Assembly (NCBI GenBank): GCA_050123235.1
Contig: JASFHL010000006.1
Location: forward strand, 1,707 to 65,706
Reading direction: 5' to 3'
Length of the DNA stretch: 64,000 nt
Source of the DNA: Candidatus Woesebacteria bacterium
GTDB taxonomy: Bacteria; Patescibacteriota; Microgenomatia; UBA1400; PJMF01
The notes under the pieces were generated by a model. The model had not been told where the DNA came from, made no database searches, and saw only the letters and a program-made list of their open reading frames with translations. The number at the start of each line of letters is the position of its first letter. Within the stretch, counting starts at the first letter, position 1. The position numbers and the translations under genes were made by a program. Below are positions 19,461 to 50,603 of the stretch, piece after piece.

Positions 19461-20537
19461 TTAATCAGCCACAACTCTTGGATCTAGAGCAGGCACATAG
19501 CCTAAGAAAGCATCATCGCCTTCAAAAACAAAAATGGGTTGTAAGTATTCTTGCTCTACAAAAGAATCAAAATAAGCTAAGTAAACATTTCTAATCACAG
19601 CTTCTTCCAATTTTTGATCACTTAAAGTAAAACCCTCCCCAGCTTGTAATAATTTCCAGGCCTCCTGAGGACTTCTTAAAGGATAAGTTTCAACTGTCAA
19701 GTAATCAATTGCCTGGTAATTATACTCCATCTGTAAAATAGCATCGTTTCCTCTTAAAACACCGGTAATGATAGCCGTAATTGTTCCTTTATACCCCCCA
19801 GGGGTATACATTCTAAATTCACCATCAATAGGATAGCGGTTAAGATCAACTTTCACAAAATCTGCATCCGACAAAGACACAGCTTCTTCCAATTCTGAGC
19901 CTAATGATTTCAAATAACTAATATCACCTGAACTAGTAGCCACATCTTCTGGTAACAAATTAGCTGATCTTAAAAAAGTTTTTAGCAAATTAACTGATTC
20001 AAAGTCATCTGGCAAATTTTTATTCAAAATTAAATCTGGTCTAGACAAATAATCAGTTTTAAAAACAAAATGCATATTTTGAATATCCAAATCAAAAGTA
20101 GATTCCAAAGGTTCTGATCTAGTCCAACGATAAGTTCTTTCATCTAAAACTTGAGGTTCAAAAACAAAATTGTATATCTGAGCCACTCTTCTTGCTTCTT
20201 GATCTGCTAACAAGCTAGGAGCGGACTTTAGAGCTAAAAATACCTTGGCTCTATCACCAAATGAAGGAAAACTAGCTGTTGCTAATTCTAAACGATATGA
20301 TTTTGGCACTTGATCTGGATCCTGTTCGGGAAAGACAATGGCTGGTAGTTTCCCAAAACCCATAGTCGGAGGGGGGGGTGGTTCTGGATGTATAGCTTTC
20401 CAAAAAGAAATAAAAGCAGATAAAAACATTCTGCCCACAATTAAAACAACTAAAGTGATAATGCTAAATTTGATAGTTTGTCTACCAATTCTAGCTACAT
20501 TGGTTAAAGTTGGGGCAGAAGAATCAGTAGCTGGCAT
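19461..20537 (-). CDS. hypothetical N-terminally anchored extracytoplasmic protein
   Basis: One N-terminal TM followed by a PPPPP linker. Contains a G8/C8 homopolymer in the coding sequence. Confidence 0.4.
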   Translation of the reverse strand: MPATDSSAPTLTNVARIGRQTIKFSIITLVVLIVGRMFLSAFISFWKAIHPEPPPPPTMGFGKLPAIVFPEQDPDQVPKSYRLELATASFPSFGDRAKVFLALKSAPSLLADQEARRVAQIYNFVFEPQVLDERTYRWTRSEPLESTFDLDIQNMHFVFKTDYLSRPDLILNKNLPDDFESVNLLKTFLRSANLLPEDVATSSGDISYLKSLGSELEEAVSLSDADFVKVDLNRYPIDGEFRMYTPGGYKGTITAIITGVLRGNDAILQMEYNYQAIDYLTVETYPLRSPQEAWKLLQAGEGFTLSDQKLEEAVIRNVYLAYFDSFVEQEYLQPIFVFEGDDAFLGYVPALDPRVVAD

Positions 20538-39656: not shown

Positions 39657-40538
39657 TTAGCAAAAATTTGCTTGGATAACAGCCTTCAAATCCTGTTTCA
39701 GCTCTGGCTTATCTTTAGCCACCATCAGATTAGCCTTTAACCAGCCTGATAAATTACCTCCATCTAAATAAGTCCCTTGAGGGGTAAATACTAGCACTTC
39801 ATCTGTTTTAATTAAATTTAGCAAAGAATCAGTGATCAAAACTTCTTTAACTCTAGCATTGGGTTTTTGTTGTTCAATAATATTAAAAATTTGTGGAGTA
39901 AAAACATATTTACTAATATTAACTAAATTTGATGGTGCTTGACCCGAAGCTGGTTTTTCTATCAAAGCAGTTAGATAATTAAAACCTTCTCTGTTTTCAA
40001 CTTTAGCTACCCCATAGCGATGTAAATCTTTTTCTTTTTTTTCAATACAAGTCATTAAAGCTGCTGTATGACTCATTTTAAAACAATTAATCATTCTTGA
40101 AGTTTCAGAAGAGCCATCAGCATTATAAATAAAATCATCACCCATAAAAACTAAAAAAGCATCTTCATTTTTAACATGTTCTTTAGCTAATAAAACAGGT
40201 ATGGCTGTACCGTATTCATCATCGTCACTTTGTTTAACAAAATGGAACTTTGCTTTTTAATGAAGTGTTTTAATTTTTTTATAAAGATGCAGTTTTTGTC
40301 TTTTTTTTAAATAATGAAACAAACGTTTATTTTCTCTATAAAAATGCAGAATTTGATAATTATGTTTACTAATCACAAAAATAATTTCTTCAATGCCTGC
40401 TTTAACACAATCTTCTACCACATAATCGATCAAAGGCCTATTCAAAACTGGTAACATTTCTTTCTGAATGCTTTTAGTAATAGGGAGCATCCTGCTACCA
40501 AAACCAGCTGCTGCTATGACTGCTTTTTTAATTTTCAT
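39657..40538 (-). pseudogene. UTP--glucose-1-phosphate uridylyltransferase (GalU)-like gene interrupted by one in-frame TAA (plus 40257-40259)
   Basis: N-terminal part KAVIAAAGFGSRMLPITKSIQKEMLPV and C-terminal part GDDFIY... are in the same frame. The 111 nt between them also encode GalU-like sequence (GTAIPVLLAKEHVKNEDAFLVF). Confidence 0.6.
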
Positions 40539-40549
40539 ATAAATCTATT

Positions 40550-41890
40550 TTACAGACCTCTTACCAAGATCGCATCAACTACTCGTTTTACAGCTGTCAT
40601 ATAAGTAGCCATTCTGCCATCAACTTGATGTTTTTCCTTTGTCTGCCACATTTCAGCAAAAGCCTTTTCCATCATTGGTTTGAGTCTATCTAAAACTTCT
40701 TTTTTAGTCCAATAGAAACTTTGCAGGTTCTGCACCCATTCAAAATATGAAACAGTTACTCCGCCTGCATTAGCCAAAATATCGGGAACAACTAAAATAT
40801 CCTTTTTAGCTAAAATCTGATCAGCTTCAGGAGTAAGCGGGCCATTGGCTAATTCAATAATAGCCTTAGCTTTGATTTTGTTAGCATTTTCTTTAGTAAT
40901 TACATTTTCCAAAGCAGCTGGTACTAAAATATCAACATCTAATTCCAAGAGTTCTTGGTTACTAATTTGTTTACCATTATTTAGATCACACTTTTCATGA
41001 GAACAAAGACAATTTGCCACTTTGCCTTTTTTTTGTTTGCAATCTAAAGTTTTTTGAGGAGCTAATCCCTGCTCCACATAAACTCCTCCTTTAGAATCTG
41101 AAACAGCCACCACTTTGTAGCCCAAATCATCAGCGTGTTTGGCAAACCAAAAACCCACATTACCAAAACCTTGGATAGCAATACTGACGTCTTTTTTACG
41201 TTTAATTCCCAATGCTTGTACTAGTGCTTCCAAAATATAAACTCCACCTAGACCAGTGGCTTCTTCACGCCCTTCAGAGCCACCTAGTGTCAGTGGTTTA
41301 CCAGTGAAAGTAGCCCAAGGATTAACTTGCAAGCTAGAAGCGCAGCAACAGCCACATTTTTCTTCTGCACAGGGCTTTGTTTTTCTAATTTTTTGATATT
41401 CATCTACCATCCAAGCCATGATTTGACCATTGGTATTGACGTCTGGAGCTGGCACATCTACCCAAGGACCTATATTATTAGCAATAAAACAAGCATAAGC
41501 GCGACTCAATCTCTCTAATTCAGTTTCGCTTAATTTTTTAGGATCAACGATCACACCTCCCTTACCGCCACCATAGGGGATACCAGTAACTGCGCATTTC
41601 CAAGTCATCCAAGTTGACAAGGCCTTAACTTCGTCTATAGTCACATTGGGATGATAACGAATACCACCCTTATAAGGACCACGAGCATTATTATGTTGGG
41701 AGCGATAAGCTTTAAATTTTTTTGTCTTGCCATTATCCATCTTAACTTCCAGCTCAGTCTCTAATAATTTTTCAGGTTCTTTTAATTTTTTAATTGCTCG
41801 CTCAAATTTTTTCTTATCTTGGTATTGGGGCTTAAGTAATTTGGCAACAGCCTCTAGTTGTTTAATAGCGTTGGCATGTAGATTTGACAT
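40550..41890 (-). CDS. gdhA: NAD(P)-glutamate dehydrogenase with two cysteine-rich insertions
   Basis: KGGIRYHP and GIPYGGGKGG motifs. Insertions KPCAEEKCGCCCASS and DCKQKKGKVANCLCSHEKCD. Confidence 0.9.
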   Translation of the reverse strand: MSNLHANAIKQLEAVAKLLKPQYQDKKKFERAIKKLKEPEKLLETELEVKMDNGKTKKFKAYRSQHNNARGPYKGGIRYHPNVTIDEVKALSTWMTWKCAVTGIPYGGGKGGVIVDPKKLSETELERLSRAYACFIANNIGPWVDVPAPDVNTNGQIMAWMVDEYQKIRKTKPCAEEKCGCCCASSLQVNPWATFTGKPLTLGGSEGREEATGLGGVYILEALVQALGIKRKKDVSIAIQGFGNVGFWFAKHADDLGYKVVAVSDSKGGVYVEQGLAPQKTLDCKQKKGKVANCLCSHEKCDLNNGKQISNQELLELDVDILVPAALENVITKENANKIKAKAIIELANGPLTPEADQILAKKDILVVPDILANAGGVTVSYFEWVQNLQSFYWTKKEVLDRLKPMMEKAFAEMWQTKEKHQVDGRMATYMTAVKRVVDAILVRGL

Positions 41891-41996
41891 CAGATTCCTT
41901 TAATTAGACTGCTAGTAATATCAAGAAGAACTTTAGTTAATTATCTCCTGTTCGTCTTTGTTCTTAGGCAGGATCTTCTGCAATAAAATTAAATCT

Positions 41997-42030
41997 AGTA
42001 TACCCCCGGGGGGTATGTGAGTCAAGCTTC
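41997..42030 (-). promoter_or_regulatory. gdhA promoter TTGACT-N17-TATACT with the ATACCCCC-G-GGGGGTAT palindrome (CsoR/RcnR-type operator) in the spacer
   Basis: Reverse complement of plus 41995-42027 reads gcTTGACTcacataccccccgggggTATACT. Palindrome at plus 42002-42018. Confidence 0.5.
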
Positions 42031-42043
42031 GAATCAAAACAGA

Positions 42044-43813
42044 TTATTTCACTGTCACACTCTTAGCAAGATTTCTTGGTTTATCAGGATCAGCTCCTAA
42101 ACCAATTGCTAAAAAGTAAGCTAAAAGTTGTCCAACGATCACATTGGCGATCACAGTTAGCTCTTGCCAATCTGGCGTTTTAATCAGCTTGTCAAATTCT
42201 GTGGCTTTGAAAGAACTAATACCAATAGTTCTAGCTCCCCTAGCCTTAAGTTCAGTGACACTCGAAAGTAATTCTGCTTTTAAATGATCATTGCTAGCTA
42301 AAGCAAAACAGGGAGTTCCATTTTTAACCAAACTAATCACTCCATGCTTCAGCTCACTAGCAGCGAAAGCTTCTGCATGAAGATAACTGCTTTCTTTGAT
42401 CTTTAAGGCAAATTCTAAAGCACCAGCATAATTTTCCTTTTTGCCAATCACGTAAATGTGATCTTCATCTAGAAGTGTCTTAGCTAGCTTGATCACTTTT
42501 TTTTCTAATTCTTCAGTTAACCATTTTTTAAGATCTTGTCCGACTTTTTTAAGCCTTTTTTGAGCTGCAGGGTATTGACCAGCTACAGCTTGACTTAATA
42601 AATAAATAGTAGCCAATTGGGCTGTGAAAGCTTTGGTGGAAACTACAGCAATTTCTGGTCCAGCACCAACTGATAAAACATAATCAGCTAATCTCTCTAA
42701 AGTTGATCCTCTAGCATTGATCACTGCCAATAATTTAGCTCCTTTTTCTTTGGCTCGTCTACTGGCAATTAAGGTGTCCGCTGTTTCACCGCTTTGAGAA
42801 ATAGCAATCACTAAAGTGTTTTTATCACAAAATTGAGCAAAGCTTTCAAATTCGTGGGCATGAAAGGCTAGGGCTTCGACTCCTACTTGAGCAAAATAAT
42901 AAGTTGAAAGCAGACAACAATGATAAGCAGTGCCACAGGCTAATAAGATTACTTTTTTATTTTTCTTGATTTGTTTGGCAATGCTTAATATTTCTTCTTT
43001 ATTAATCAAAGCTGTTCTGGGAATTGTTTCTTTTTGCTCAAAGATTTCTTTAATTAAAAAATGAGGAAAATTACCTTTTTCAGCAGTTTCTTCATCCCAA
43101 TCAATTTGCTCAATGCGGAGCTTTTTTTCTTTGCCTGAATCGAGTGAATAGAGTTTAATGCCAGTTTCTGATAAAACAATGCCTTCTCTGTCTTTTAGAT
43201 AAATTACTCTATTTGTGTGCTTCAATAAAGCAGTCACGTCAGAAGCTAAATAGTATCTATCTTGCCCTACTCCGACTATTAATGGCGAACCATCTCTACA
43301 GGCGATGATTTGTTTTGATTCTATATCAAAAATAACGATGGCATTGGAACCAGCAATAATATTGAAACTCTCAAAAACTGCCTTAACTACATCCAAAGTC
43401 TTCTTTTTTTCTTCAATCAAGTGAGCAATTACTTCAGTATCTGTTTCTGATTGAAAATGGTGTTTTTTCTTCTTAAGTTGAGATTTTAGTTCTTGGTAGT
43501 TTTCAACAATACCATTGTGTACAACAGCCACCTTTCCCGAGCCATCTAAATGCGGATGAGCATTTTCATCAGTTACTCCACCATGTGTAGCCCAACGGGT
43601 ATGACCAATTGCCATTGAACTAGCTGGTAAAGAAACCCTTGCCTCGCCAATTTTGCCAACATGTTTTTCAAGTTTTATTTTGTCTGACTTACTTGGTTTA
43701 ACTGCCACACCCCATGAATCATAACCACGATATTCGAGTTTTTTCAAACCTTCCAAAACAGTCTCAGCCGCTTGTTTTTTTTCATCATTGATTACAGCAA
43801 AAATTCCACACAT
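42044..43813 (-). CDS. glmS: glutamine--fructose-6-phosphate aminotransferase
   Basis: MCGIF N-terminal nucleophile; two SIS domains. Confidence 0.95.
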   Translation of the reverse strand: MCGIFAVINDEKKQAAETVLEGLKKLEYRGYDSWGVAVKPSKSDKIKLEKHVGKIGEARVSLPASSMAIGHTRWATHGGVTDENAHPHLDGSGKVAVVHNGIVENYQELKSQLKKKKHHFQSETDTEVIAHLIEEKKKTLDVVKAVFESFNIIAGSNAIVIFDIESKQIIACRDGSPLIVGVGQDRYYLASDVTALLKHTNRVIYLKDREGIVLSETGIKLYSLDSGKEKKLRIEQIDWDEETAEKGNFPHFLIKEIFEQKETIPRTALINKEEILSIAKQIKKNKKVILLACGTAYHCCLLSTYYFAQVGVEALAFHAHEFESFAQFCDKNTLVIAISQSGETADTLIASRRAKEKGAKLLAVINARGSTLERLADYVLSVGAGPEIAVVSTKAFTAQLATIYLLSQAVAGQYPAAQKRLKKVGQDLKKWLTEELEKKVIKLAKTLLDEDHIYVIGKKENYAGALEFALKIKESSYLHAEAFAASELKHGVISLVKNGTPCFALASNDHLKAELLSSVTELKARGARTIGISSFKATEFDKLIKTPDWQELTVIANVIVGQLLAYFLAIGLGADPDKPRNLAKSVTVK

Positions 43814-43815
43814 AG

Positions 43816-45021
43816 TTATTGATTAATATTTTTTTTAATTATTGAACCTGGCTCTATCACTGCCTCATTTTTAATTATCACTCCGGGCATGGTACTAGAC
43901 TGAACTCCAACTTTAACATTATGCCCCATGATCACTCCTAAATTTTTTCTTTTGCTATCTGTTTTTTTAGCTTTAACAACAGTTTTGACAGTAGCTCTAT
44001 CTAATCTCCTATTGGCAGAAATAAAACCTGCCCCTATTCTCACTCCCTGACCCAAGACAGAATCTCCAATAAAACCACTATGACAATGAGCATCAGTCAT
44101 CAAAATGCTATTAGCCACATCAGCAAAGCGTTGAACTTCTGCTCTATCTTCTAGTACAGAACCTTTACGCAAGATGCAATGTTGACCAACTACAGCCTTT
44201 TTACCTATATAAGCCGGACCTTCAACAATAGCATAATCAGCAACAATTGCTTCAGGACCAATATAGACATCACCCTTAATCAAGGCTGTCGGAGATATTT
44301 TAGCTTGTTTAGAGATTGAAAATTTGAACTTTTGAAATAGCTCATTTTTAAGATCCAATAAATGCCAAGGGTATTTAAGAGAAGCTGGAGTTTTTTCAAA
44401 CTTAGCAACCTTAACTTCATGTTTTTGCATATAGTTATTCAAAGCAGTTTCCAAAAGATACTCTTCGGCTGGCAAAGATGACATGTAATTTAGAAAATCT
44501 CTATTTAATAGATAAATGCCAATAATTCGATACGGATTTTTTATTTTCTGCTGTGGTTTTTCAATCAAAGAAATTGCTTTAACTCCCTCAATAGAGACAA
44601 CACCATAAATTTTTGGATTGTCAGTTGCTGTAGCAGCCAAAGCGGAAGAACTATTCAAATTAATCATTTTTTGTAAATAATCAGCTGCATTGACTTGACT
44701 GGCATTCATCACAAAAAAATGCTCATCGAGTAAATCTTTGGCAGCCAAAATAGCGTCAGCCATTCCTCGAGCTTCTTTTTGAATAGCAATTTCCAGTTTT
44801 TCAAAATTTTGAACATAATCTTTTAACAAAGATTTAGTCCTTGAGTTTGACTGATTTACTACTACTACCACTTTTTTTATTTTAGCTTCGATTAAAGAAT
44901 CTAAAGTCCAATAAAGTATTGGTTTGCCCATTAACACAGTTTCAACTTTGCTTTCTTTTATTGAAAAAGGAAAAAATCTGGAAGATTTGCCGGCGGCTAA
45001 TAAAACTGCTTGCTTTGGCAT
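43816..45021 (-). CDS. bifunctional sugar-1-phosphate nucleotidyltransferase / left-handed-beta-helix acetyltransferase (GlmU-like)
   Basis: LAAGKSSRF nucleotidyltransferase motif and C-terminal hexapeptide repeats. Adjacent to glmS. Confidence 0.6.
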   Translation of the reverse strand: MPKQAVLLAAGKSSRFFPFSIKESKVETVLMGKPILYWTLDSLIEAKIKKVVVVVNQSNSRTKSLLKDYVQNFEKLEIAIQKEARGMADAILAAKDLLDEHFFVMNASQVNAADYLQKMINLNSSSALAATATDNPKIYGVVSIEGVKAISLIEKPQQKIKNPYRIIGIYLLNRDFLNYMSSLPAEEYLLETALNNYMQKHEVKVAKFEKTPASLKYPWHLLDLKNELFQKFKFSISKQAKISPTALIKGDVYIGPEAIVADYAIVEGPAYIGKKAVVGQHCILRKGSVLEDRAEVQRFADVANSILMTDAHCHSGFIGDSVLGQGVRIGAGFISANRRLDRATVKTVVKAKKTDSKRKNLGVIMGHNVKVGVQSSTMPGVIIKNEAVIEPGSIIKKNINQ

Positions 45022-45037
45022 AAAAATTTAATTTTTT

Positions 45038-45694
45038 TTATAAAAAATTATTCAATTGCATCATATCATGAATACAATAATTAGCTTTTTTTGATTTTTT
45101 GGAAAATAAAACTCCAATACCTCCTTGCTCCTGACCAATTTGACAATCTTTTTCCCAATTATCTCCCACGTAAAGACACTCCTCAGCTTTAAGTTTAAAT
45201 TTTTTCCAAGCCCGCTCATAATATTTGATGCTTGGTTTCATCACTTTCATCTCATCAGAATTAAATATTAAATCAAATCTATCTTTTAAATTAAACTTAT
45301 TCAATTTGAGATCAGTTAGTCTTTGACTGCCCTCAGTGATGAGTATTTTTAAGACAGACAAATCTTGTTCCAAAAACCGCCTGCTTCCTTTAGTAAGACT
45401 GAGCTTTGCTGCCACTTCATCTTCAAGTATTCTAACTGCATCAGGAATAAAACTTTTATCTAAGTTTAACTTACCCAGCGTTTGAGCAAGCGAATATTCA
45501 AAAGAGCGTTCTTTTGGGTTTTTAGAAAATTTAAGTTTTTTGACAGTTACGCGCCATTGTTTGAAAATTATTTCTTCATCAAAAGATAGTTTTTGAGCAA
45601 GAAAATCAATTGCTTTTTTATAGGCAGCTTGGGAAATATTAGCTGTATTGACTAGAGTATTATCTAAATCAAAAAAAATTGCTTTAATTCTCAT
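45038..45694 (-). CDS. HAD-superfamily hydrolase
   Basis: FFDLDNTLV motif I; downstream GDN motif. Confidence 0.7.
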   Translation of the reverse strand: MRIKAIFFDLDNTLVNTANISQAAYKKAIDFLAQKLSFDEEIIFKQWRVTVKKLKFSKNPKERSFEYSLAQTLGKLNLDKSFIPDAVRILEDEVAAKLSLTKGSRRFLEQDLSVLKILITEGSQRLTDLKLNKFNLKDRFDLIFNSDEMKVMKPSIKYYERAWKKFKLKAEECLYVGDNWEKDCQIGQEQGGIGVLFSKKSKKANYCIHDMMQLNNFL

Positions 45695-46710
45695 GGGTTT
45701 ACGATTTTGACTAATACTTTAGCTAATTTATAGGCATCATGACGTAATAAAGTTCTAATAACAGTATCACTTTTATTTTGTTGAATCAGAGACTTAGAAA
45801 GTAACTTTGCTTTGATAATCTGGCTTTGCTCCAAATTAACTAAATCATCTCTTATCGGAAACTCTTTGCAGCGAGCATATCTTGCAGCTAAATCTGCTGG
45901 CATCTGCTCAGAATTTAAAATAACTATATCTGGTCTTCTGCCACAGTATCTGATCACTTCTGTTAGGTGATCCTTGGCAGTCATTTTATGTGTCTGCGCA
46001 TAATGCGTCATCAGATTGACAATATAAACAAACTTTCCTTTATTCTCTTTCAGAGCTGCTTTGAAACCTTTGGGCAAAGCATTAACCAAAAGACTAGCAT
46101 ATAAATCACCTGGTCCTAAAATAATCATATCTGCCGATTCGATGGCTGCAGCTGCTTTTTTATAAATCTGACTCTTTGGTTCAAGTTCTATTTTAGTAAT
46201 TCTCTTACCTCCATAACGACTATCATCTAAAGTGTGTTCGCCAATATTAATAGTCCCATCTTGGTAATGAATCTTCAAACTAGTGTCTTTTTCTGTAATC
46301 GGATAAACTCGGCCATTAATTCTAAAGATACGAGCAGCTGTTTCTATTGCTTGAGCAGGAGAATTACTTAAATATTCAAGAGCAGTTAAGATCAGATTGC
46401 CCAGATTATGTCCTTTAAGACCATTGCCTTTATTAAAACGATAAAGTAATAAGTTTCTGATATCTTCCTGATATCGGCCATCAGCTAAAGCGGCCAAACA
46501 CTGTCTCAAATCACCGACTGCTAAAAAACCAAATTCATCACGCAATCTGCCAGTCGATCCACCTGAATCAAAAACCGCCACAATGGCAGTTAGATCAAGC
46601 TTTGCCTCATTCTTAAGCCCTGAGAGAACCACTGAAGTGCCTGTTCCTCCACCAATGACTACTACTTTCTTTTTACGAACTTTTTTTACCATACCAGACA
46701 AGTATAGCAA
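45691..46710 (-). CDS. YvcK / gluconeogenesis-factor (CofD-like, UPF0052) family protein
   Basis: VVIGGGTGTSVVLSGLK and FDSGGSTGRLRDEFG motifs. Confidence 0.75.
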   Translation of the reverse strand: MLYLSGMVKKVRKKKVVVIGGGTGTSVVLSGLKNEAKLDLTAIVAVFDSGGSTGRLRDEFGFLAVGDLRQCLAALADGRYQEDIRNLLLYRFNKGNGLKGHNLGNLILTALEYLSNSPAQAIETAARIFRINGRVYPITEKDTSLKIHYQDGTINIGEHTLDDSRYGGKRITKIELEPKSQIYKKAAAAIESADMIILGPGDLYASLLVNALPKGFKAALKENKGKFVYIVNLMTHYAQTHKMTAKDHLTEVIRYCGRRPDIVILNSEQMPADLAARYARCKEFPIRDDLVNLEQSQIIKAKLLSKSLIQQNKSDTVIRTLLRHDAYKLAKVLVKIVNP

Positions 46711-46736: not shown

Positions 46737-47795
46737 TCAGCTTTCTAGCCAAGCTTCTGCATCTAAGGCTGCGCTACAACCTTGACCAGCTGCAGTAATG
46801 GCTTGTTTATAACGCAAATCAACAACATCGCCTGCAGCAAACACGCCTTCTACTGAAGTCATGCTGGGGTAATCAACTAGACCATTTTTATTTAAAGCTT
46901 GTTTAGCTTTTTCTAAACCAGCTTTGGAAAGACTTAAGCGGGTGATCAAATATTTTTTTTCATCCATTTCTAGCTGTCCTGCAAAAATCTCAGTCACTGG
47001 TCGATGGCCGATGGCCAAAAAGACTCCATCTGCTGTCAATTTTTGTATTTTGCCATTTATTTTAATTTTTATTTTTTCAACTTTATCTTGACCCAGCACT
47101 TCTTTAAGATTGCTATTCCATAAAACCTCAATCTTAGGATGCTTAAGAACTCGATCTTGCATAATTTTGCTGGCTCTAAATCTATCTCTGCGATGAATAA
47201 TATGAACTTCTTTGGCAAACTTAGTTAAAGCCAAAGCATCTTCCATAGCAGTATCACCCCCACCCACTACATAGACTTTTTTGTCTTTATAAAAGGCAGC
47301 GTCACAAACAGCACAAGTGCTAAGACCTCTACCTAAAAATTTTTGTTCTCCTGGAATACCTAACATGATCGAAGTAGCTCCAGTGCAAACAATCACTGCC
47401 TCGGGTTCAATGTCATGCTTTTTCTTTTTTATTTTAGCAGTCAAAGCTAGGATTTTTTCAGACTTAGCTTTTTTATAAAAATCATAAGCTGTACTTTCTG
47501 GTAAGCTAGTCCAAAGTTTGAAAGGTCTTTTTTTAAAATCAACAGCTGTCACTAGTTGGTCAACAATTTGAGTTTCAAAATGTTCTGCTTGCTGACGTAA
47601 GCTCATCATGAATTCAGGACCTTGAATTCCTTTAGGAAAGCCAGGAAAATTTTCAAGTTCAGTGGTATACATTAGTTGACCACCGCTTTCGAGGCCAGTG
47701 AAAAGTATGGGTTTCAGTTTTGCGCGAGCTGCATAAATAGCGGCTGTGTAGCCAGCAGGCCCAGAACCGATGATTGCCAATTTTGTTTTGATCAT
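46737..47795 (-). CDS. trxB: thioredoxin-disulfide reductase
   Basis: GSGPAGYTAA FAD motif and CAVCD redox centre. Confidence 0.85.
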   Translation of the reverse strand: MIKTKLAIIGSGPAGYTAAIYAARAKLKPILFTGLESGGQLMYTTELENFPGFPKGIQGPEFMMSLRQQAEHFETQIVDQLVTAVDFKKRPFKLWTSLPESTAYDFYKKAKSEKILALTAKIKKKKHDIEPEAVIVCTGATSIMLGIPGEQKFLGRGLSTCAVCDAAFYKDKKVYVVGGGDTAMEDALALTKFAKEVHIIHRRDRFRASKIMQDRVLKHPKIEVLWNSNLKEVLGQDKVEKIKIKINGKIQKLTADGVFLAIGHRPVTEIFAGQLEMDEKKYLITRLSLSKAGLEKAKQALNKNGLVDYPSMTSVEGVFAAGDVVDLRYKQAITAAGQGCSAALDAEAWLES

Positions 47796-48033: not shown

Positions 48034-48381
48034 TTAATCTAAAACTCCCTCAATCATGGCTTTTAAGCCGGCTTCACCTGGAAAACCTACTTGTCGTTTT
48101 ACTTCTTTGATCTTTTTTCCATCAGCTTCAAAAATAATAACAGTAGGAATACTCATCACACCATATTCTTTAGCAGTAGTTTGATTTTCATCAACATTGA
48201 CTTTAACAATCATAATTTTATCTTTATATTCATCAGCTAATTTATCAATGATAGGGGCTGCCATTTGACAAGGCCCACACCAATCAGCATAAAAATCAAC
48301 CATTACTGGCTTGCCTGCTTTTTGAATACTTTGTTTAAAGTTATCATCATTTAGATGAGCTGCGCCTTTTTTGTCTGCCAT
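48034..48381 (-). CDS. trxA: thioredoxin
   Basis: WCGPC active site. Confidence 0.9.
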   Translation of the reverse strand: MADKKGAAHLNDDNFKQSIQKAGKPVMVDFYADWCGPCQMAAPIIDKLADEYKDKIMIVKVNVDENQTTAKEYGVMSIPTVIIFEADGKKIKEVKRQVGFPGEAGLKAMIEGVLD

Positions 48382-48410: not shown

Positions 48411-48704
48411 TTAATATCTAAAAATCTCTTTTAAAATTTGATCTAGTTGTTTTATATTTCGTTCCTTGGAACAACGACTTGCTTCATTGCTTAGCAAATC
48501 TCTAGCCACTCTACCTAAAGAATTACGAGCTGCAATTACTTGTCTCACAATATCAATGCACATTCTTTCATCTTCATACATTTTAATCAAGCCGTCGATT
48601 TGACCTCTAATTCTTCTCAGTTGCTGAGCAACTTTGTCTTCTGTTTTATCTTTAGAGATTATAGAAATTTTTTTTAATTTTTTGTTTCGCTTTACTCGTG
48701 ACAT
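48411..48704 (-). CDS. CsoR/RcnR/FrmR-family (DUF156) metal/redox-sensing transcriptional repressor
   Basis: 97-aa protein with LRRIRGQIDGLIKMYEDERMCIDIVRQV...RC. The sensor positions read Cys...Asn...Cys rather than Cys-His-Cys. Confidence 0.7.
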   Translation of the reverse strand: MSRVKRNKKLKKISIISKDKTEDKVAQQLRRIRGQIDGLIKMYEDERMCIDIVRQVIAARNSLGRVARDLLSNEASRCSKERNIKQLDQILKEIFRY

Positions 48705-48709
48705 ATTAT

Positions 48710-48742
48710 TTTAATATACCCCCTGGGGGTATGTTAAGTCAA
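48710..48742 (-). promoter_or_regulatory. promoter of the CsoR-family gene, TTGACT-N18-TATATT, with the ATACCCCC-T-GGGGGTAT operator overlapping spacer and -10; -10 is ~8 nt from the ATG (leaderless)
   Basis: Reverse complement of plus 48705-48742 reads TTGACTtaacatacccccagggggTATATTaaaataat, followed by ATG. Confidence 0.5.
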
Positions 48743-48755
48743 GTAGATCTTTCTA

Positions 48756-50603
48756 TCAATTTTTGATTTGATTCTGTAATTTAACAATTAATTCCAACAG
48801 ATCATTTAATCTGGTCTCCTCTTCTTCTGTTTTTTTTAATTTTTTATCAAGTTCTTCAATTTGAGCATTGATTTTGTTGATTTTTCTTCTGATTAATTCT
48901 TTTTTTAATAAATTAAAAACTCGATTCCATTCTTGATCAACTTTTAATTGATCCAATAAATCAAGATATTTGGGATTTAAATAAAAGTCAAACAGTTTTT
49001 CTTTTAAATCTTCAGCTAGAGTGTGAGCAAACTTATCTAAAACAAAATCAGTTTTAAAACTAATTATTTTTTTAATAATTTGCTGAGCACCTAATAAACT
49101 AAGCTCAAAATCTTTTAACAAGCAAGCTCTATCTTTAACTTTGCTTTGATCAGAGCGCAGTAACAAAAAAAATAAATACCTTTCTAGTTCTAATAGACTC
49201 TCACTTTCTCCTTCTGCTTTTTTTTGTGACGGTCTCCTGGCAATTTTACTGACAACGCTCTTTTTTTGTTTCTTAGATATTATTTTAAGATTAGCGCTAA
49301 TCCTAGTCATATCCTTCATCACTACCGCCTGTTTAACATTTAAAGCTTTAGCTAATTTAGCTAAATAATAATCTTGCTCAACTGCATGTTTAATCTTAAA
49401 TAAAACTGCTGCTAATTCATCCATAATTTTTCTTTTCCCTTCTGGCTTTTGGGGATCATGTTTATTTAAAACTACCCGTAGTAAAAACTCATAAATAGAG
49501 ATTGATTGTTTAGCTTTTTTACGCCAAAGGGATGCTTCAACGCTAGCTAGTTCATCAACATCTTTGTATTTTTTCCTATTGCTAACTTTTTTATTATCAG
49601 AATTATCATTTAAATCAATGATCCGTAACTCCAAACGACTGTCTTTTATTAAATCAATTGCTCTTCTACTAGCTTCAATGCCAGCATTATCAGTATCAAG
49701 ACAAAGCAAAACTTTATCAGCTACTCTTTCAAACAATTTAATTTGCTCTTTTGTTAAGGCTGAACCCTTAATTGCCACAATGTGATTGACATGAGCTTGT
49801 ACTGAAGAAATGACATCAAATTCCCCTTCACAAACAATTACTTCCTGTTTCTTCTTAATTTCGCGAAATAATTCACTAAAACCATAGAGCATCTGAGATT
49901 TATGATAGAGTAAAGTTTCAGGAGTGTTAATATATTTGGCCTCCTTAGCTGCTTTATCAAGTAAACGACCTGAAAAGCCAACAACTATACCTCGGTGATT
50001 TTTAAGAGGGAAAACTACTCTGGAACGAAAACGATCATAATAGCGACCAGTTTTGGTTTTGATGATTAAACCTGTTTTGAAAATTTCTTCCAAACTAAAT
50101 TTCTTTTTATGATGCAAATACTTGATCAAACCATCCCAACTATCCAGAGCAAATCCTAATTGAAATAATTTAATTGAATCTTGAGTAATACTTCTTTCTT
50201 TCAAATATGCTCTAGCTTTCTCTCCTCTTTGATGTTTAGTGAGTATATAGTGGTAATATTCTTTAGCTAAATTTAAAATTGCTAACAATCGTTCGCGTTC
50301 TTCATCATTACTGGAGCGCTTAAATTCTTTTAACTTAATGCCAGCCCGATCAGCTAATTGTTTCAAAGCTTCCAAAAAAGTCATGCCATCATATCTCTCC
50401 AAAAATTCGATCACATCACCACTTGCTCCACAACCAAAGCAACGAAAACGCTGAATATCTTCACTGACAAAGAAACTGGGAGTTTTTTCATTATGAAAGG
50501 GACAAAGGCCCTTATAACTACTACCTGCAGCTTTCAATTCCAAACGCTCAACAATAATATCAACAATATTATTAGCATCCTTGACTGTTTGGACTTGGGA
50601 CAT
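48756..50603 (-). CDS. dnaG: DNA primase
   Basis: CPFHNEKTPSF zinc finger and a Toprim domain. Confidence 0.9.
   Translation of the reverse strand: MSQVQTVKDANNIVDIIVERLELKAAGSSYKGLCPFHNEKTPSFFVSEDIQRFRCFGCGASGDVIEFLERYDGMTFLEALKQLADRAGIKLKEFKRSSNDEERERLLAILNLAKEYYHYILTKHQRGEKARAYLKERSITQDSIKLFQLGFALDSWDGLIKYLHHKKKFSLEEIFKTGLIIKTKTGRYYDRFRSRVVFPLKNHRGIVVGFSGRLLDKAAKEAKYINTPETLLYHKSQMLYGFSELFREIKKKQEVIVCEGEFDVISSVQAHVNHIVAIKGSALTKEQIKLFERVADKVLLCLDTDNAGIEASRRAIDLIKDSRLELRIIDLNDNSDNKKVSNRKKYKDVDELASVEASLWRKKAKQSISIYEFLLRVVLNKHDPQKPEGKRKIMDELAAVLFKIKHAVEQDYYLAKLAKALNVKQAVVMKDMTRISANLKIISKKQKKSVVSKIARRPSQKKAEGESESLLELERYLFFLLLRSDQSKVKDRACLLKDFELSLLGAQQIIKKIISFKTDFVLDKFAHTLAEDLKEKLFDFYLNPKYLDLLDQLKVDQEWNRVFNLLKKELIRRKINKINAQIEELDKKLKKTEEEETRLNDLLELIVKLQNQIKN

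Follow-up and report, generated by a model that had tools for sequence, protein, structure and literature searches.

CsoR of Streptomyces lividans binds the operator ATATACCCCTNAGGGGTATAT; operators of this kind are defined by an inverted repeat, TAC-N9-GTA, built around G/C tracts, and each takes up two CsoR tetramers (PMC3902906). The cst operator of Streptococcus mitis, bound by CstR, reads ATATACCCTTATGGGGTATAT (PMC8643695). Proteins with an x-C-x-C fingerprint are persulfide or oxidant sensors whose two cysteines become cross-linked between protomers; loss of the histidine at position Y of the fingerprint abolishes copper-driven allostery, and in SpCstR this position is taken by an asparagine 'wedge' residue, N55 (PMC8643695). 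Here we analysed a stretch of 64,000 nucleotides from a Candidatus Woesebacteria contig (JASFHL010000006.1; hereafter the window, G+C content 33.7%), in which a palindrome of this operator type occurs before a gene for a CsoR-like regulator, followed by the thioredoxin genes trxA and trxB, and again before gdh, which encodes a glutamate dehydrogenase (GDH). GDH, the regulator and one neighbouring protein each show 100% identity to NCBI proteins assigned to Candidatus Woesebacteria. We consider it probable, though well short of certain, that the CsoR-family protein is a repressor acting on both palindromes, that it works as a thiol switch, and that the thioredoxin system and GDH are its output. 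The elements concerned, with their positions in the window, are as follows.

41997..42025, minus strand: gdh promoter, TTGACT-N17-TATACT, whose spacer is taken up by the operator, which runs on into the -10 hexamer
42000..42016, no strand assigned: operator O-gdh, ATACCCCCGGGGGGTAT on the plus strand, a TAC-N9-GTA palindrome with a G/C tract
48713..48742, minus strand: promoter of csoR-like/trxA/trxB, TTGACT-N18-TATATT, holding O-csoRL
48716..48732, no strand assigned: operator O-csoRL, ATACCCCCTGGGGGTAT on the plus strand, the second exact copy of the palindrome
48411..48704, minus strand: csoR-like gene for the putative repressor, 97 amino acids (aa), fingerprint x-C49-E74-C78 (PF02583, 63.2 bits)
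48034..48381, minus strand: trxA, thioredoxin with a WCGPC motif (TIGR01068, 119 bits, above cutoff)
46737..47795, minus strand: trxB, thioredoxin reductase with CAVC and HRRDRFR motifs (TIGR01292, 357 bits, above cutoff)
40550..41890, minus strand: gdh, 446-aa glutamate dehydrogenase of the hexameric type (PF02812 and PF00208)
42044..46710, minus strand: four genes between trxB and gdh, namely CofD-like, a 218-aa open reading frame (ORF), a 401-aa ORF and GlmS
48756-50603: dnaG, neighbour of the csoR-like cassette

On the minus strand the gdh promoter consists of the hexamers TTGACT (42025..42020) and TATACT (42002..41997) with a 17-nt spacer, CACATACCCCCCGGGGG, exactly as the initial annotation had read it. 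The palindrome ATACCCCC-N-GGGGGTAT at 42000-42016 shares its last three bases with the -10 hexamer. This promoter lies in the 153-nt gap between the stop codon of glmS and the start of gdh, and leaves a leader of about 100 nt before the gdh ATG. An Rfam search found no RNA family between 39.5 and 49.5 kb, so this leader is without a known riboswitch. O-csoRL sits 12 nt 5' of the PF02583 (CsoR/RcnR family) gene, and the ATG of this gene follows the -10 hexamer by about 8 nt, which makes a leaderless mRNA probable. Read on the gene strand, the two operators differ in the centre base alone (C in O-gdh, A in O-csoRL), and the second copy of the 8+1+8 palindrome claimed at the CsoR-family promoter is indeed exact. 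The palindrome did not occur once in 100 dinucleotide-preserving shuffles of the window, against two exact sites observed, each within a sigma-70-like promoter. The promoter consensus by itself gave 34 matches in the window compared to 30.5 expected, which is not significant in such AT-rich DNA; the case thus rests on the operator and not on the hexamers.

The palindrome in the window belongs to the operator type that experiments have defined for CsoR and resembles the S. mitis cst operator, and its occurrence in the regulator's own promoter, as a TAC-N9-GTA pseudopalindrome with G/C tracts, is as expected of the CsoR/RcnR superfamily. To follow the motif through relatives, 63 related loci were fetched and analysed (722,519 nt in total, some of it redundant; about 790 kb examined in all), in which 59 csoR-like genes have upstream sequence. 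ATACCCC-N3-GGGGTAT, with at most one mismatch, was found 5' of 57 of these 59 genes, and the remaining two loci (L131, L132) have ATACTCCCCATGGGTAT, which is still TAC-N9-GTA. All 62 sites that the related loci contain at this threshold stand before a csoR-like gene or gdh. Their aligned consensus is cTTGACA-N4-ATACCCC-N3-GGGGTAT, in which the right arm enters the -10 hexamer, and a minority of sites show a second register, TTGAC-ATACCCC...GGGGTATATATACT. The match in operator type, together with the placement before 57 of 59 csoR-like genes, leads us to predict that the CsoR-family protein encoded alongside uses the palindromes as its operators, as had been claimed.

Comparative evidence strongly supports the view that the trx operon and gdh form one regulon, and this is the firmest of our results. 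In Patescibacteria the genes commonly run dnaG, csoR-like, trxA, trxB, (malic enzyme), gdh, rpoD; a single operator stands before the csoR-like gene, and gdh would normally share a transcript with csoR-like, trxA and trxB. Our comparison set comprised 29 non-redundant related loci containing gdh. In 25 of them gdh comes directly after trxB, or after a malic enzyme gene that follows trxB, and in these contiguous loci no operator-like sequence was found up to 350 nt 5' of gdh, the best match having three mismatches. By contrast, gdh has its own operator in four of the five cases in which it is separated (the window, L082, L087 and L085), compared to none of the 25 contiguous ones (Fisher's exact test, P = 1.8e-4). 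Three unrelated genes intervene in L082, where an exact operator lies about 60 nt 5' of gdh and the gdh and csoR-like promoters are near-identical over about 28 nt (cTTGACAATATACCCCTAGGGGGTATAC and cTTGTCAATATACCCCTAGGGGGTATAC, respectively). Four genes intervene in L087, which has an exact intergenic operator about 200 nt 5' of gdh. L085 encodes the closest GDH homologue (74% identity) and has no csoR-like gene, trxA or trxB within 10 kb of gdh; its gdh promoter reads TTGACA-ACTATACCCCCCGGGAG-TATATT, with one mismatch in the operator. The operator-in-spacer layout of the window recurs 5' of gdh in all three loci, and the window, with four same-strand genes (42044..46710) after trxB, makes the fourth separated case with its own operator. 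This distribution argues that the two-site regulon of the window is the dispersed form of a widely conserved operon. The small regulon of at least the trx operon and gdh that the initial annotation had suggested is therefore borne out by the operon that the relatives share and by the operator that gdh carries when it is split off.

The regulator itself is a member of the CsoR/RcnR superfamily (DUF156) by profile, fold and operator type. It scores 63.2 bits against PF02583, for which the cutoff is 22.8, and its AlphaFold2 model has the three helices of a protomer of roughly 80-100 aa (residues 18-44, 49-81 and 84-96), in which helix 2 opens with C49 and holds C78 close to its end; the top 20 Foldseek matches in the PDB are all CsoR, CstR, InrS or FrmR. 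Both cysteines are invariant in the 120 closest homologues, and E74 is present in 119 of the 120. This glutamate stands at the position of the copper-ligand histidine (H61 of Mycobacterium tuberculosis CsoR; the first histidine of HANHC in Geobacillus CsoR), so that the Cys-His-Cys ligand set (x-C-H-C) of Cu(I)-sensing CsoR is absent, whereas the two conserved cysteines and the lack of a histidine at Y correspond to the CstR-type x-C-x-C pattern, here with Y = Glu. Among the same 120 homologues the N-terminus varies and contains gaps, and no further histidine or cysteine is conserved, which leaves neither the RcnR/InrS (H-C-H-H/C) nor the FrmR (P2-C-H-x) fingerprint, with their N-terminal His3 or Pro2 and histidine at Y. 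The regulator is therefore not a Cu-CsoR, an RcnR/InrS or an FrmR, as the defining ligands of each are missing. NCBIfam models of these sensors score far under their cutoffs (RicR 49 against 175, FrmR 28.7 against 133, RcnR 22.7 against 138). The clade to which the regulator belongs was found almost wholly in Patescibacteria. The protein has a 19-residue N-terminal extension rich in lysine and arginine, MSRVKRNKKLKKISIISKD (48648-48704), which is modelled as disordered; most homologues, at about 78 aa, are without it.

Copper genes are nearly absent from the neighbourhood of these regulators: 1,915 ORFs from about 60 related loci and the window included one P1B-ATPase-like ORF and one MxCxxC mini-ORF, and instead of the copA/copZ neighbours of Cu-CsoR there are trxA and trxB throughout. 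An invariant cysteine pair without the copper-ligand histidine, in this setting, makes a thiol switch likelier than copper sensing, and the fact that the partner genes encode a disulfide-reducing system counts in the same direction. We therefore favour a switch that responds to thiol oxidation or sulfane sulfur (persulfide) and would be reset by thioredoxin. Of the 'redox or metal sensor' that had been envisaged, the redox half is thus the one we would keep, and the metal half, for want of the copper-ligand histidine, is the weaker option.

Turning to the output, GDH is a hexameric ELFV-type enzyme by its domains (PF02812 at 2.3e-57, PF00208 at 2e-80), its lysine motif and its fold. In the GGGKGG motif K110, G107-G108 and G112 are invariant in the alignment and G111 is nearly so. 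The protein matches the 1gtm chain at E = 3.5e-125, is 48-50% identical to the Pyrococcus, Thermococcus and Thermotoga enzymes, and its AlphaFold2 model (mean predicted local distance difference test score, pLDDT, 94.1) superimposes on GDH of Thermococcus profundus (8xcp) with TM-scores of 0.89/0.95. At 513 bits it does not reach the cutoff of 750 for the NCBIfam equivalog GdhA_Arch; it appears to belong to a divergent clade, and glutamate is its predicted substrate. The initial annotation had counted nine cysteines added by two insertions, and the count is correct: residues 174, 179, 181, 182 and 183 in a first segment and 284, 294, 296 and 301 in a second.

41333..41371, minus strand: insertion 1, residues 174-186, CAEEKCGCCCASS, five cysteines, absent from the 120 closest homologues
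40988..41041, minus strand: Cys4 module, residues 284-301, C-K-x8-C-x-C-x4-C, in the beta2-beta3 excursion of the Rossmann fold

Aligned to three solved GDHs (1gtm, 1b3b, 1euz), the protein has 16 extra residues at the first site and nine at the second, so both insertions are non-canonical in that sense; C284, however, is a substitution in the helix before the second insertion, outside the nine-residue loop itself, and the second module turns out to be common in close GDHs of the Candidate Phyla Radiation (CPR). An origin by frameshift or alignment artefact, named beforehand as what would undo the claim, was rejected by this alignment, since the flanks of both insertions are in frame and highly conserved. 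The cysteines of insertion 1, PCAEEKCGCCCASS, are found in no other sequence among the 120 closest homologues, in which the loop that holds it varies from 0 to about 20 residues. Because it is in frame and the exact GDH protein is recorded on two database contigs, this CGCCC loop is probably real, though apparently private to this organism. The structure prediction that had been suggested separates the two segments: residues 175-185 have a pLDDT below 50 and are modelled as disordered, in keeping with what is probably a flexible surface insertion, whereas the blocks over the Cys4 module reach 96-98. In that model C296 and C301 are single-residue beta-bridges by DSSP, which fits a closed hairpin, and the excursion starts at the SDSK coenzyme loop.

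The Cys4 module has a distribution of its own. Its four cysteines are complete in most of the 120 closest homologues, which together with the invariant C99 have five cysteines in total. CPR GDHs with a short loop keep only C284 and C294 (P0047, P0059, P0080; L099, L138), and the counterpart of C296 and C301, on a YC-x4-C hairpin, is the only pair present in GDHs of cyanobacteria, Planctomycetota, Gammaproteobacteria and other groups. A scan of genome contigs with the GDH alignment gave, among the matches listed, GDHs from many phyla at 44-52% identity, and the YC-x4-C loop of the non-CPR groups was seen there. A separate set, the 150 best representatives of clusters formed at 50% identity, included 12 with all four cysteines, 12 with the second pair only and 104 with none. 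The loop (A/P)(V/L)YC-x4-C, located where the CPR enzyme has its second cysteine pair, is shared by GDHs of cyanobacteria, Planctomycetota, Hydrogenedentes and some Gammaproteobacteria (cyanobacterial loci L009, L015, L041, L057, L060, L063, L065 and L072; further loci L008, L076 and L024), and occurs in no solved GDH aligned here. The module would thus be a lineage-specific add-on of two cysteine pairs (284/294 and 296/301), and since the pairs occur independently, two dithiol/disulfide elements, or a zinc-thiolate switch made from them, are favoured over a structural four-ligand site. From sequence and model together, it is probably a redox-sensitive dithiol or zinc-thiolate element beside the coenzyme-binding loop.

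Such a module cannot explain why gdh is linked to the thioredoxin genes. Twelve of the 29 comparison GDHs are without it, 11 of them demonstrably operon-linked and one a truncated ORF that ends short of the region. The earlier proposal that the cysteine insertions make co-regulation coherent does not hold as stated and is partly right at most, because these 12 lack the module and insertion 1, which sits in a hypervariable loop, has no second example. In 13 of the 29 loci malic enzyme is encoded between trxB and gdh. The malic enzyme in this position is small, about 395 aa (L084 4568-5752, L086 8032-9225 and 11 further loci). GDHs without the Cys module occur in 9 of 13 loci with malic enzyme and in 3 of 16 without it (one of the three being the truncated ORF), an association that may simply be phylogeny.

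Malic enzyme and GDH are both dehydrogenases able to regenerate NAD(P)H from abundant metabolites, and TrxB carries HRRDRFR, which we take to be the motif that binds the 2'-phosphate of NADPH in low-molecular-weight thioredoxin reductases. The most economical reading, which fits the distribution better than the Cys module does, is that the unit combines a thiol-reducing system with enzymes that provide TrxB with NADPH. The beta2 loop of GDH, VVAVSDSKGG, is identical to that of 1gtm, and its best structural match, the T. profundus enzyme, was solved with NADP. We searched the paper on the latter for the residues that contact the 2'-phosphate of NADP and found none stated, so that NADP as the coenzyme of the present GDH is best put as a presumed preference.

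What has been established here are the sites with their conservation and placement, the gene order, the conserved residues and the protein folds; from these we infer that the repressor binds DNA, what it senses, and in which direction and with which coenzyme GDH works, as follows. The reduced, dithiol form of the repressor would bind the TAC-N9-GTA operator with its G/C tracts in two promoters, that of csoR-like/trxA/trxB (and the genes following) and that of gdh; as the operator fills the spacer between -35 and -10, the bound repressor would block RNA polymerase. Thiol oxidation or sulfane-sulfur stress would modify Cys49 and Cys78' across the subunit interface, in the manner of CstR, and the repressor would leave the DNA. 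Thioredoxin, NADPH-dependent thioredoxin reductase and GDH, and in many relatives malic enzyme too, would then rise together. GDH would oxidise glutamate and regenerate NADPH for TrxB, and reduced thioredoxin would finally reset the repressor. The second operator would reflect the splitting of gdh from trxB by four unrelated genes, gdh carrying its own copy of the promoter-operator module.

Other explanations have to be weighed against this scheme. Each palindrome lies about 25-30 nt past the stop codon of a same-strand gene and could form a 7-bp hairpin with a 3-nt loop, so the two might be structural elements, either hairpin terminators for glmS and dnaG or copies of a dispersed repeat, that do not serve as binding sites for a protein. 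We regard this as very improbable. The folding energies of the hairpins are ordinary (z = -1.2 and -0.9), neither is followed by a T-tract and a terminator scan called neither. Moreover, about 50 divergent genomes keep the sequence and not just the pairing, with a constant spacing to TTGACA, at sites that occur in the related loci only before the csoR-like gene or gdh. The terminator reading was rejected on these grounds. If the palindromes are operators, the protein that binds them may still be a true metal sensor, for Cu(I) or, through Cys-Glu-Cys, for Zn, Fe or Co, with trx and gdh as a metal-stress response and the cysteine loops of GDH as a metal buffer. PF02583 is annotated as a metal-sensitive family, the operator is identical in type to those of Cu-CsoRs, the CGCCC loop of GDH looks metallothionein-like when its residues are read, and CstR-type proteins are still able to bind Cu(I) (PMC8643695). 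On balance we find a metal sensor distinctly unlikely, given that the allosterically essential histidine is replaced by glutamate in 119 of 120 homologues, there is no histidine-rich N-terminus, about 55 neighbourhoods contain essentially no genes of the copA/copZ type, every NCBIfam metal-sensor model stays far under its cutoff (RicR 49 against 175) and the CGCCC loop is confined to one organism.

A further alternative accepts the regulon and gives GDH another place in it: as a target of thioredoxin, with the cysteine pairs as regulatory disulfides or a zinc-thiolate switch, NADPH supply not being the point. Chloroplast NADP-malate dehydrogenase, fructose-1,6-bisphosphatase and glucose-6-phosphate dehydrogenase offer the analogy, and several properties of the Cys4 module would suit it: the module is common in close CPR GDHs, it is confidently modelled, with C296 and C301 as beta-bridge residues, its independent pairs suit two dithiol pairs better than a four-ligand site, and it lies in an excursion that starts at the coenzyme-discriminating SDSK loop. 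We nevertheless judge it unlikely, though less so than a metal sensor, since the linkage of gdh to trx is wider than the module (11 operon-linked GDHs are among the 12 of 29 without it) and malic enzyme occupies the same slot in 13 of 29 loci. Some observations do weigh against the scheme of a thiol-switched repressor with trx and GDH as its output. The closest solved relatives of the regulator by sequence are Cu-CsoRs (4m1p, 2hh7), a point that favours metal sensing, and its near-invariant glutamate at Y differs from the asparagine wedge (N55) of SpCstR. L096 has unrelated genes between trxB and gdh without a second operator; these genes overlap or are a few bases apart, up to the start of gdh, so that no separate promoter is expected there and gdh may be co-transcribed. 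The intervening genes of the window are likewise tightly packed on the same strand, and read-through may reach gdh, in which case the second operator may only tune its expression.

Taking the thiol-switch scheme further, it is possible, and we put it forward tentatively, that Patescibacteria hold an undescribed, self-contained redox unit between dnaG and rpoD, made up of an x-C-E-C switch, thioredoxin with its reductase, and dedicated enzymes that make NADPH for them (GDH, alone or together with malic enzyme), the NADPH generator being gated in many lineages by a two-pair cysteine module that is redox-responsive or binds zinc. In other bacteria dnaG and rpoD form the classical macromolecular-synthesis operon, and the csoR-like/trxA/trxB/(malic enzyme)/gdh cassette lies between them in Patescibacteria (loci L084-L139). 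No rpoD homologue was detected in the window, so rpoD does not lie 3' of gdh here. TrxB, at 352 aa, has about 28 extra residues after residue 96 and about 18 near residue 300 compared to the 310-aa TrxB of L081, and a long form (354-363 aa) is present in most relatives. Among the genes between trxB and gdh, the CofD-like protein is assigned by PF01933 and GlmS by its SIS and GATase domains; judged by their sequences, the 218-aa ORF looks HAD-like and the 401-aa ORF looks like a sugar-nucleotidyltransferase. Just 3' of gdh lies a further nucleotidyltransferase gene (PF00483; 39657-40538, minus strand), which resembles UDP-glucose pyrophosphorylase and is split into ORFs of 93 and 162 aa, with the break near an A8 run at about 40303-40311; a frameshift, an error in sequencing or decay into a pseudogene could account for the split.

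The window contains one more operator-like site.

19791..19807, no strand assigned: third operator-like site, ATACCCC-CCA-GGGGTAT, inside the ORF 19461..20537 and 337 nt 5' of gltX

It fits the 7-3-7 core perfectly and is the sole orphan site in the roughly 790 kb examined. On the gene strand TTTAGA stands at the usual N4 distance and TATAAA follows. The host ORF is a conserved hypothetical membrane-protein gene, in which the site codes YTPGGY in rare codons (ACC makes up 11.5% of threonine codons, GGG 7.9% of glycine codons); given the peptide, the probability of the motif is about 5e-4. Homologues of the protein have P-[EDAKQ]-G-Y at that position, and in two relatives examined the site is absent, though the synteny with gltX is kept. 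Its status is uncertain and we have not added it to the regulon.

CPR bacteria, or Patescibacteria, account for a large share of bacterial diversity and are thought to be without the oxidative pentose-phosphate pathway; to our knowledge, their transcriptional regulation and their ways of coping with oxidants are almost unexplored. We also know of no earlier CsoR-family protein that controls a thioredoxin system. Literature searches, in a limited library in which absence is not proof, found no CsoR-family regulator of trx genes and no CPR trx-gdh operon, nor any redox regulation of prokaryotic GDH through such cysteine motifs or any cysteine module of GDH. Our data point to a concrete and widely conserved triplet of regulator, operator and regulon. 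If the scheme is true, an x-C-E-C class of sensors would join the CsoR superfamily, and a source of NADPH for thiol repair would have been found in CPR bacteria that works without the oxidative pentose-phosphate pathway. Should the redox-unit reading also hold, it would represent a minimal circuit of electron supply and sensing for organisms that lack most of central metabolism. The Cys4 module, present in most close relatives, constitutes a new and testable feature of GDH.

How, then, does the locus compare with known systems? Its GDH resembles the archaeal-type hexameric enzymes of Pyrococcus, Thermococcus and Thermotoga, with 48-50% identity, TM-scores of 0.89-0.96, the same catalytic motifs and the same beta2 loop, but neither insertion is present in 1gtm, 1b3b or 1euz, and the listed hexameric chains measure 405-440 aa compared to 446 aa here. 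The idea of an NADP-dependent GDH that feeds thioredoxin and glutathione reductases has a precedent in Plasmodium falciparum, whose GDHa was proposed as a source of NADPH for antioxidant reductases and proved dispensable (PMC3163627); the gene for GDHa is, however, not genetically linked to trx genes, whereas here the link is a conserved operon or regulon. With SigR-RsrA of Streptomyces and Spx of Bacillus the likeness is one of logic only, in that an oxidisable sensor induces trxA and trxB and thioredoxin resets the sensor. The proteins are unrelated (an anti-sigma factor and an ArsC-like factor that binds RNA polymerase), and neither unit contains a dedicated NADPH-generating dehydrogenase.

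The nearest relatives of the regulator lie within its own superfamily. The Cu(I)-sensing CsoRs of M. tuberculosis, Bacillus subtilis, S. lividans and Geobacillus share with it the closest solved sequences, the operator type and the autoregulatory position, but the present protein is without the copper-ligand histidine and has essentially no copA/copZ nearby. It is also without the tyrosine beside the first cysteine, which in Cu-CsoR is part of the second-shell allosteric network. CstR of Staphylococcus aureus, Enterococcus faecalis and Streptococcus pneumoniae (PMC8643695) has in common with it the DUF156 fold, cysteines at X and Z with no histidine at Y, an ATACCC...GGGTAT operator overlapping the promoter, and a regulator gene that adjoins its targets. 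Position Y is a near-invariant glutamate here and an asparagine in SpCstR. The sulfide and persulfide detoxification genes that CstR controls, encoding sulfurtransferases (rhodaneses), persulfide dioxygenase and CoA-persulfide reductase, are not among the predicted targets here; their place is taken by trxA, trxB, gdh and sometimes malic enzyme.

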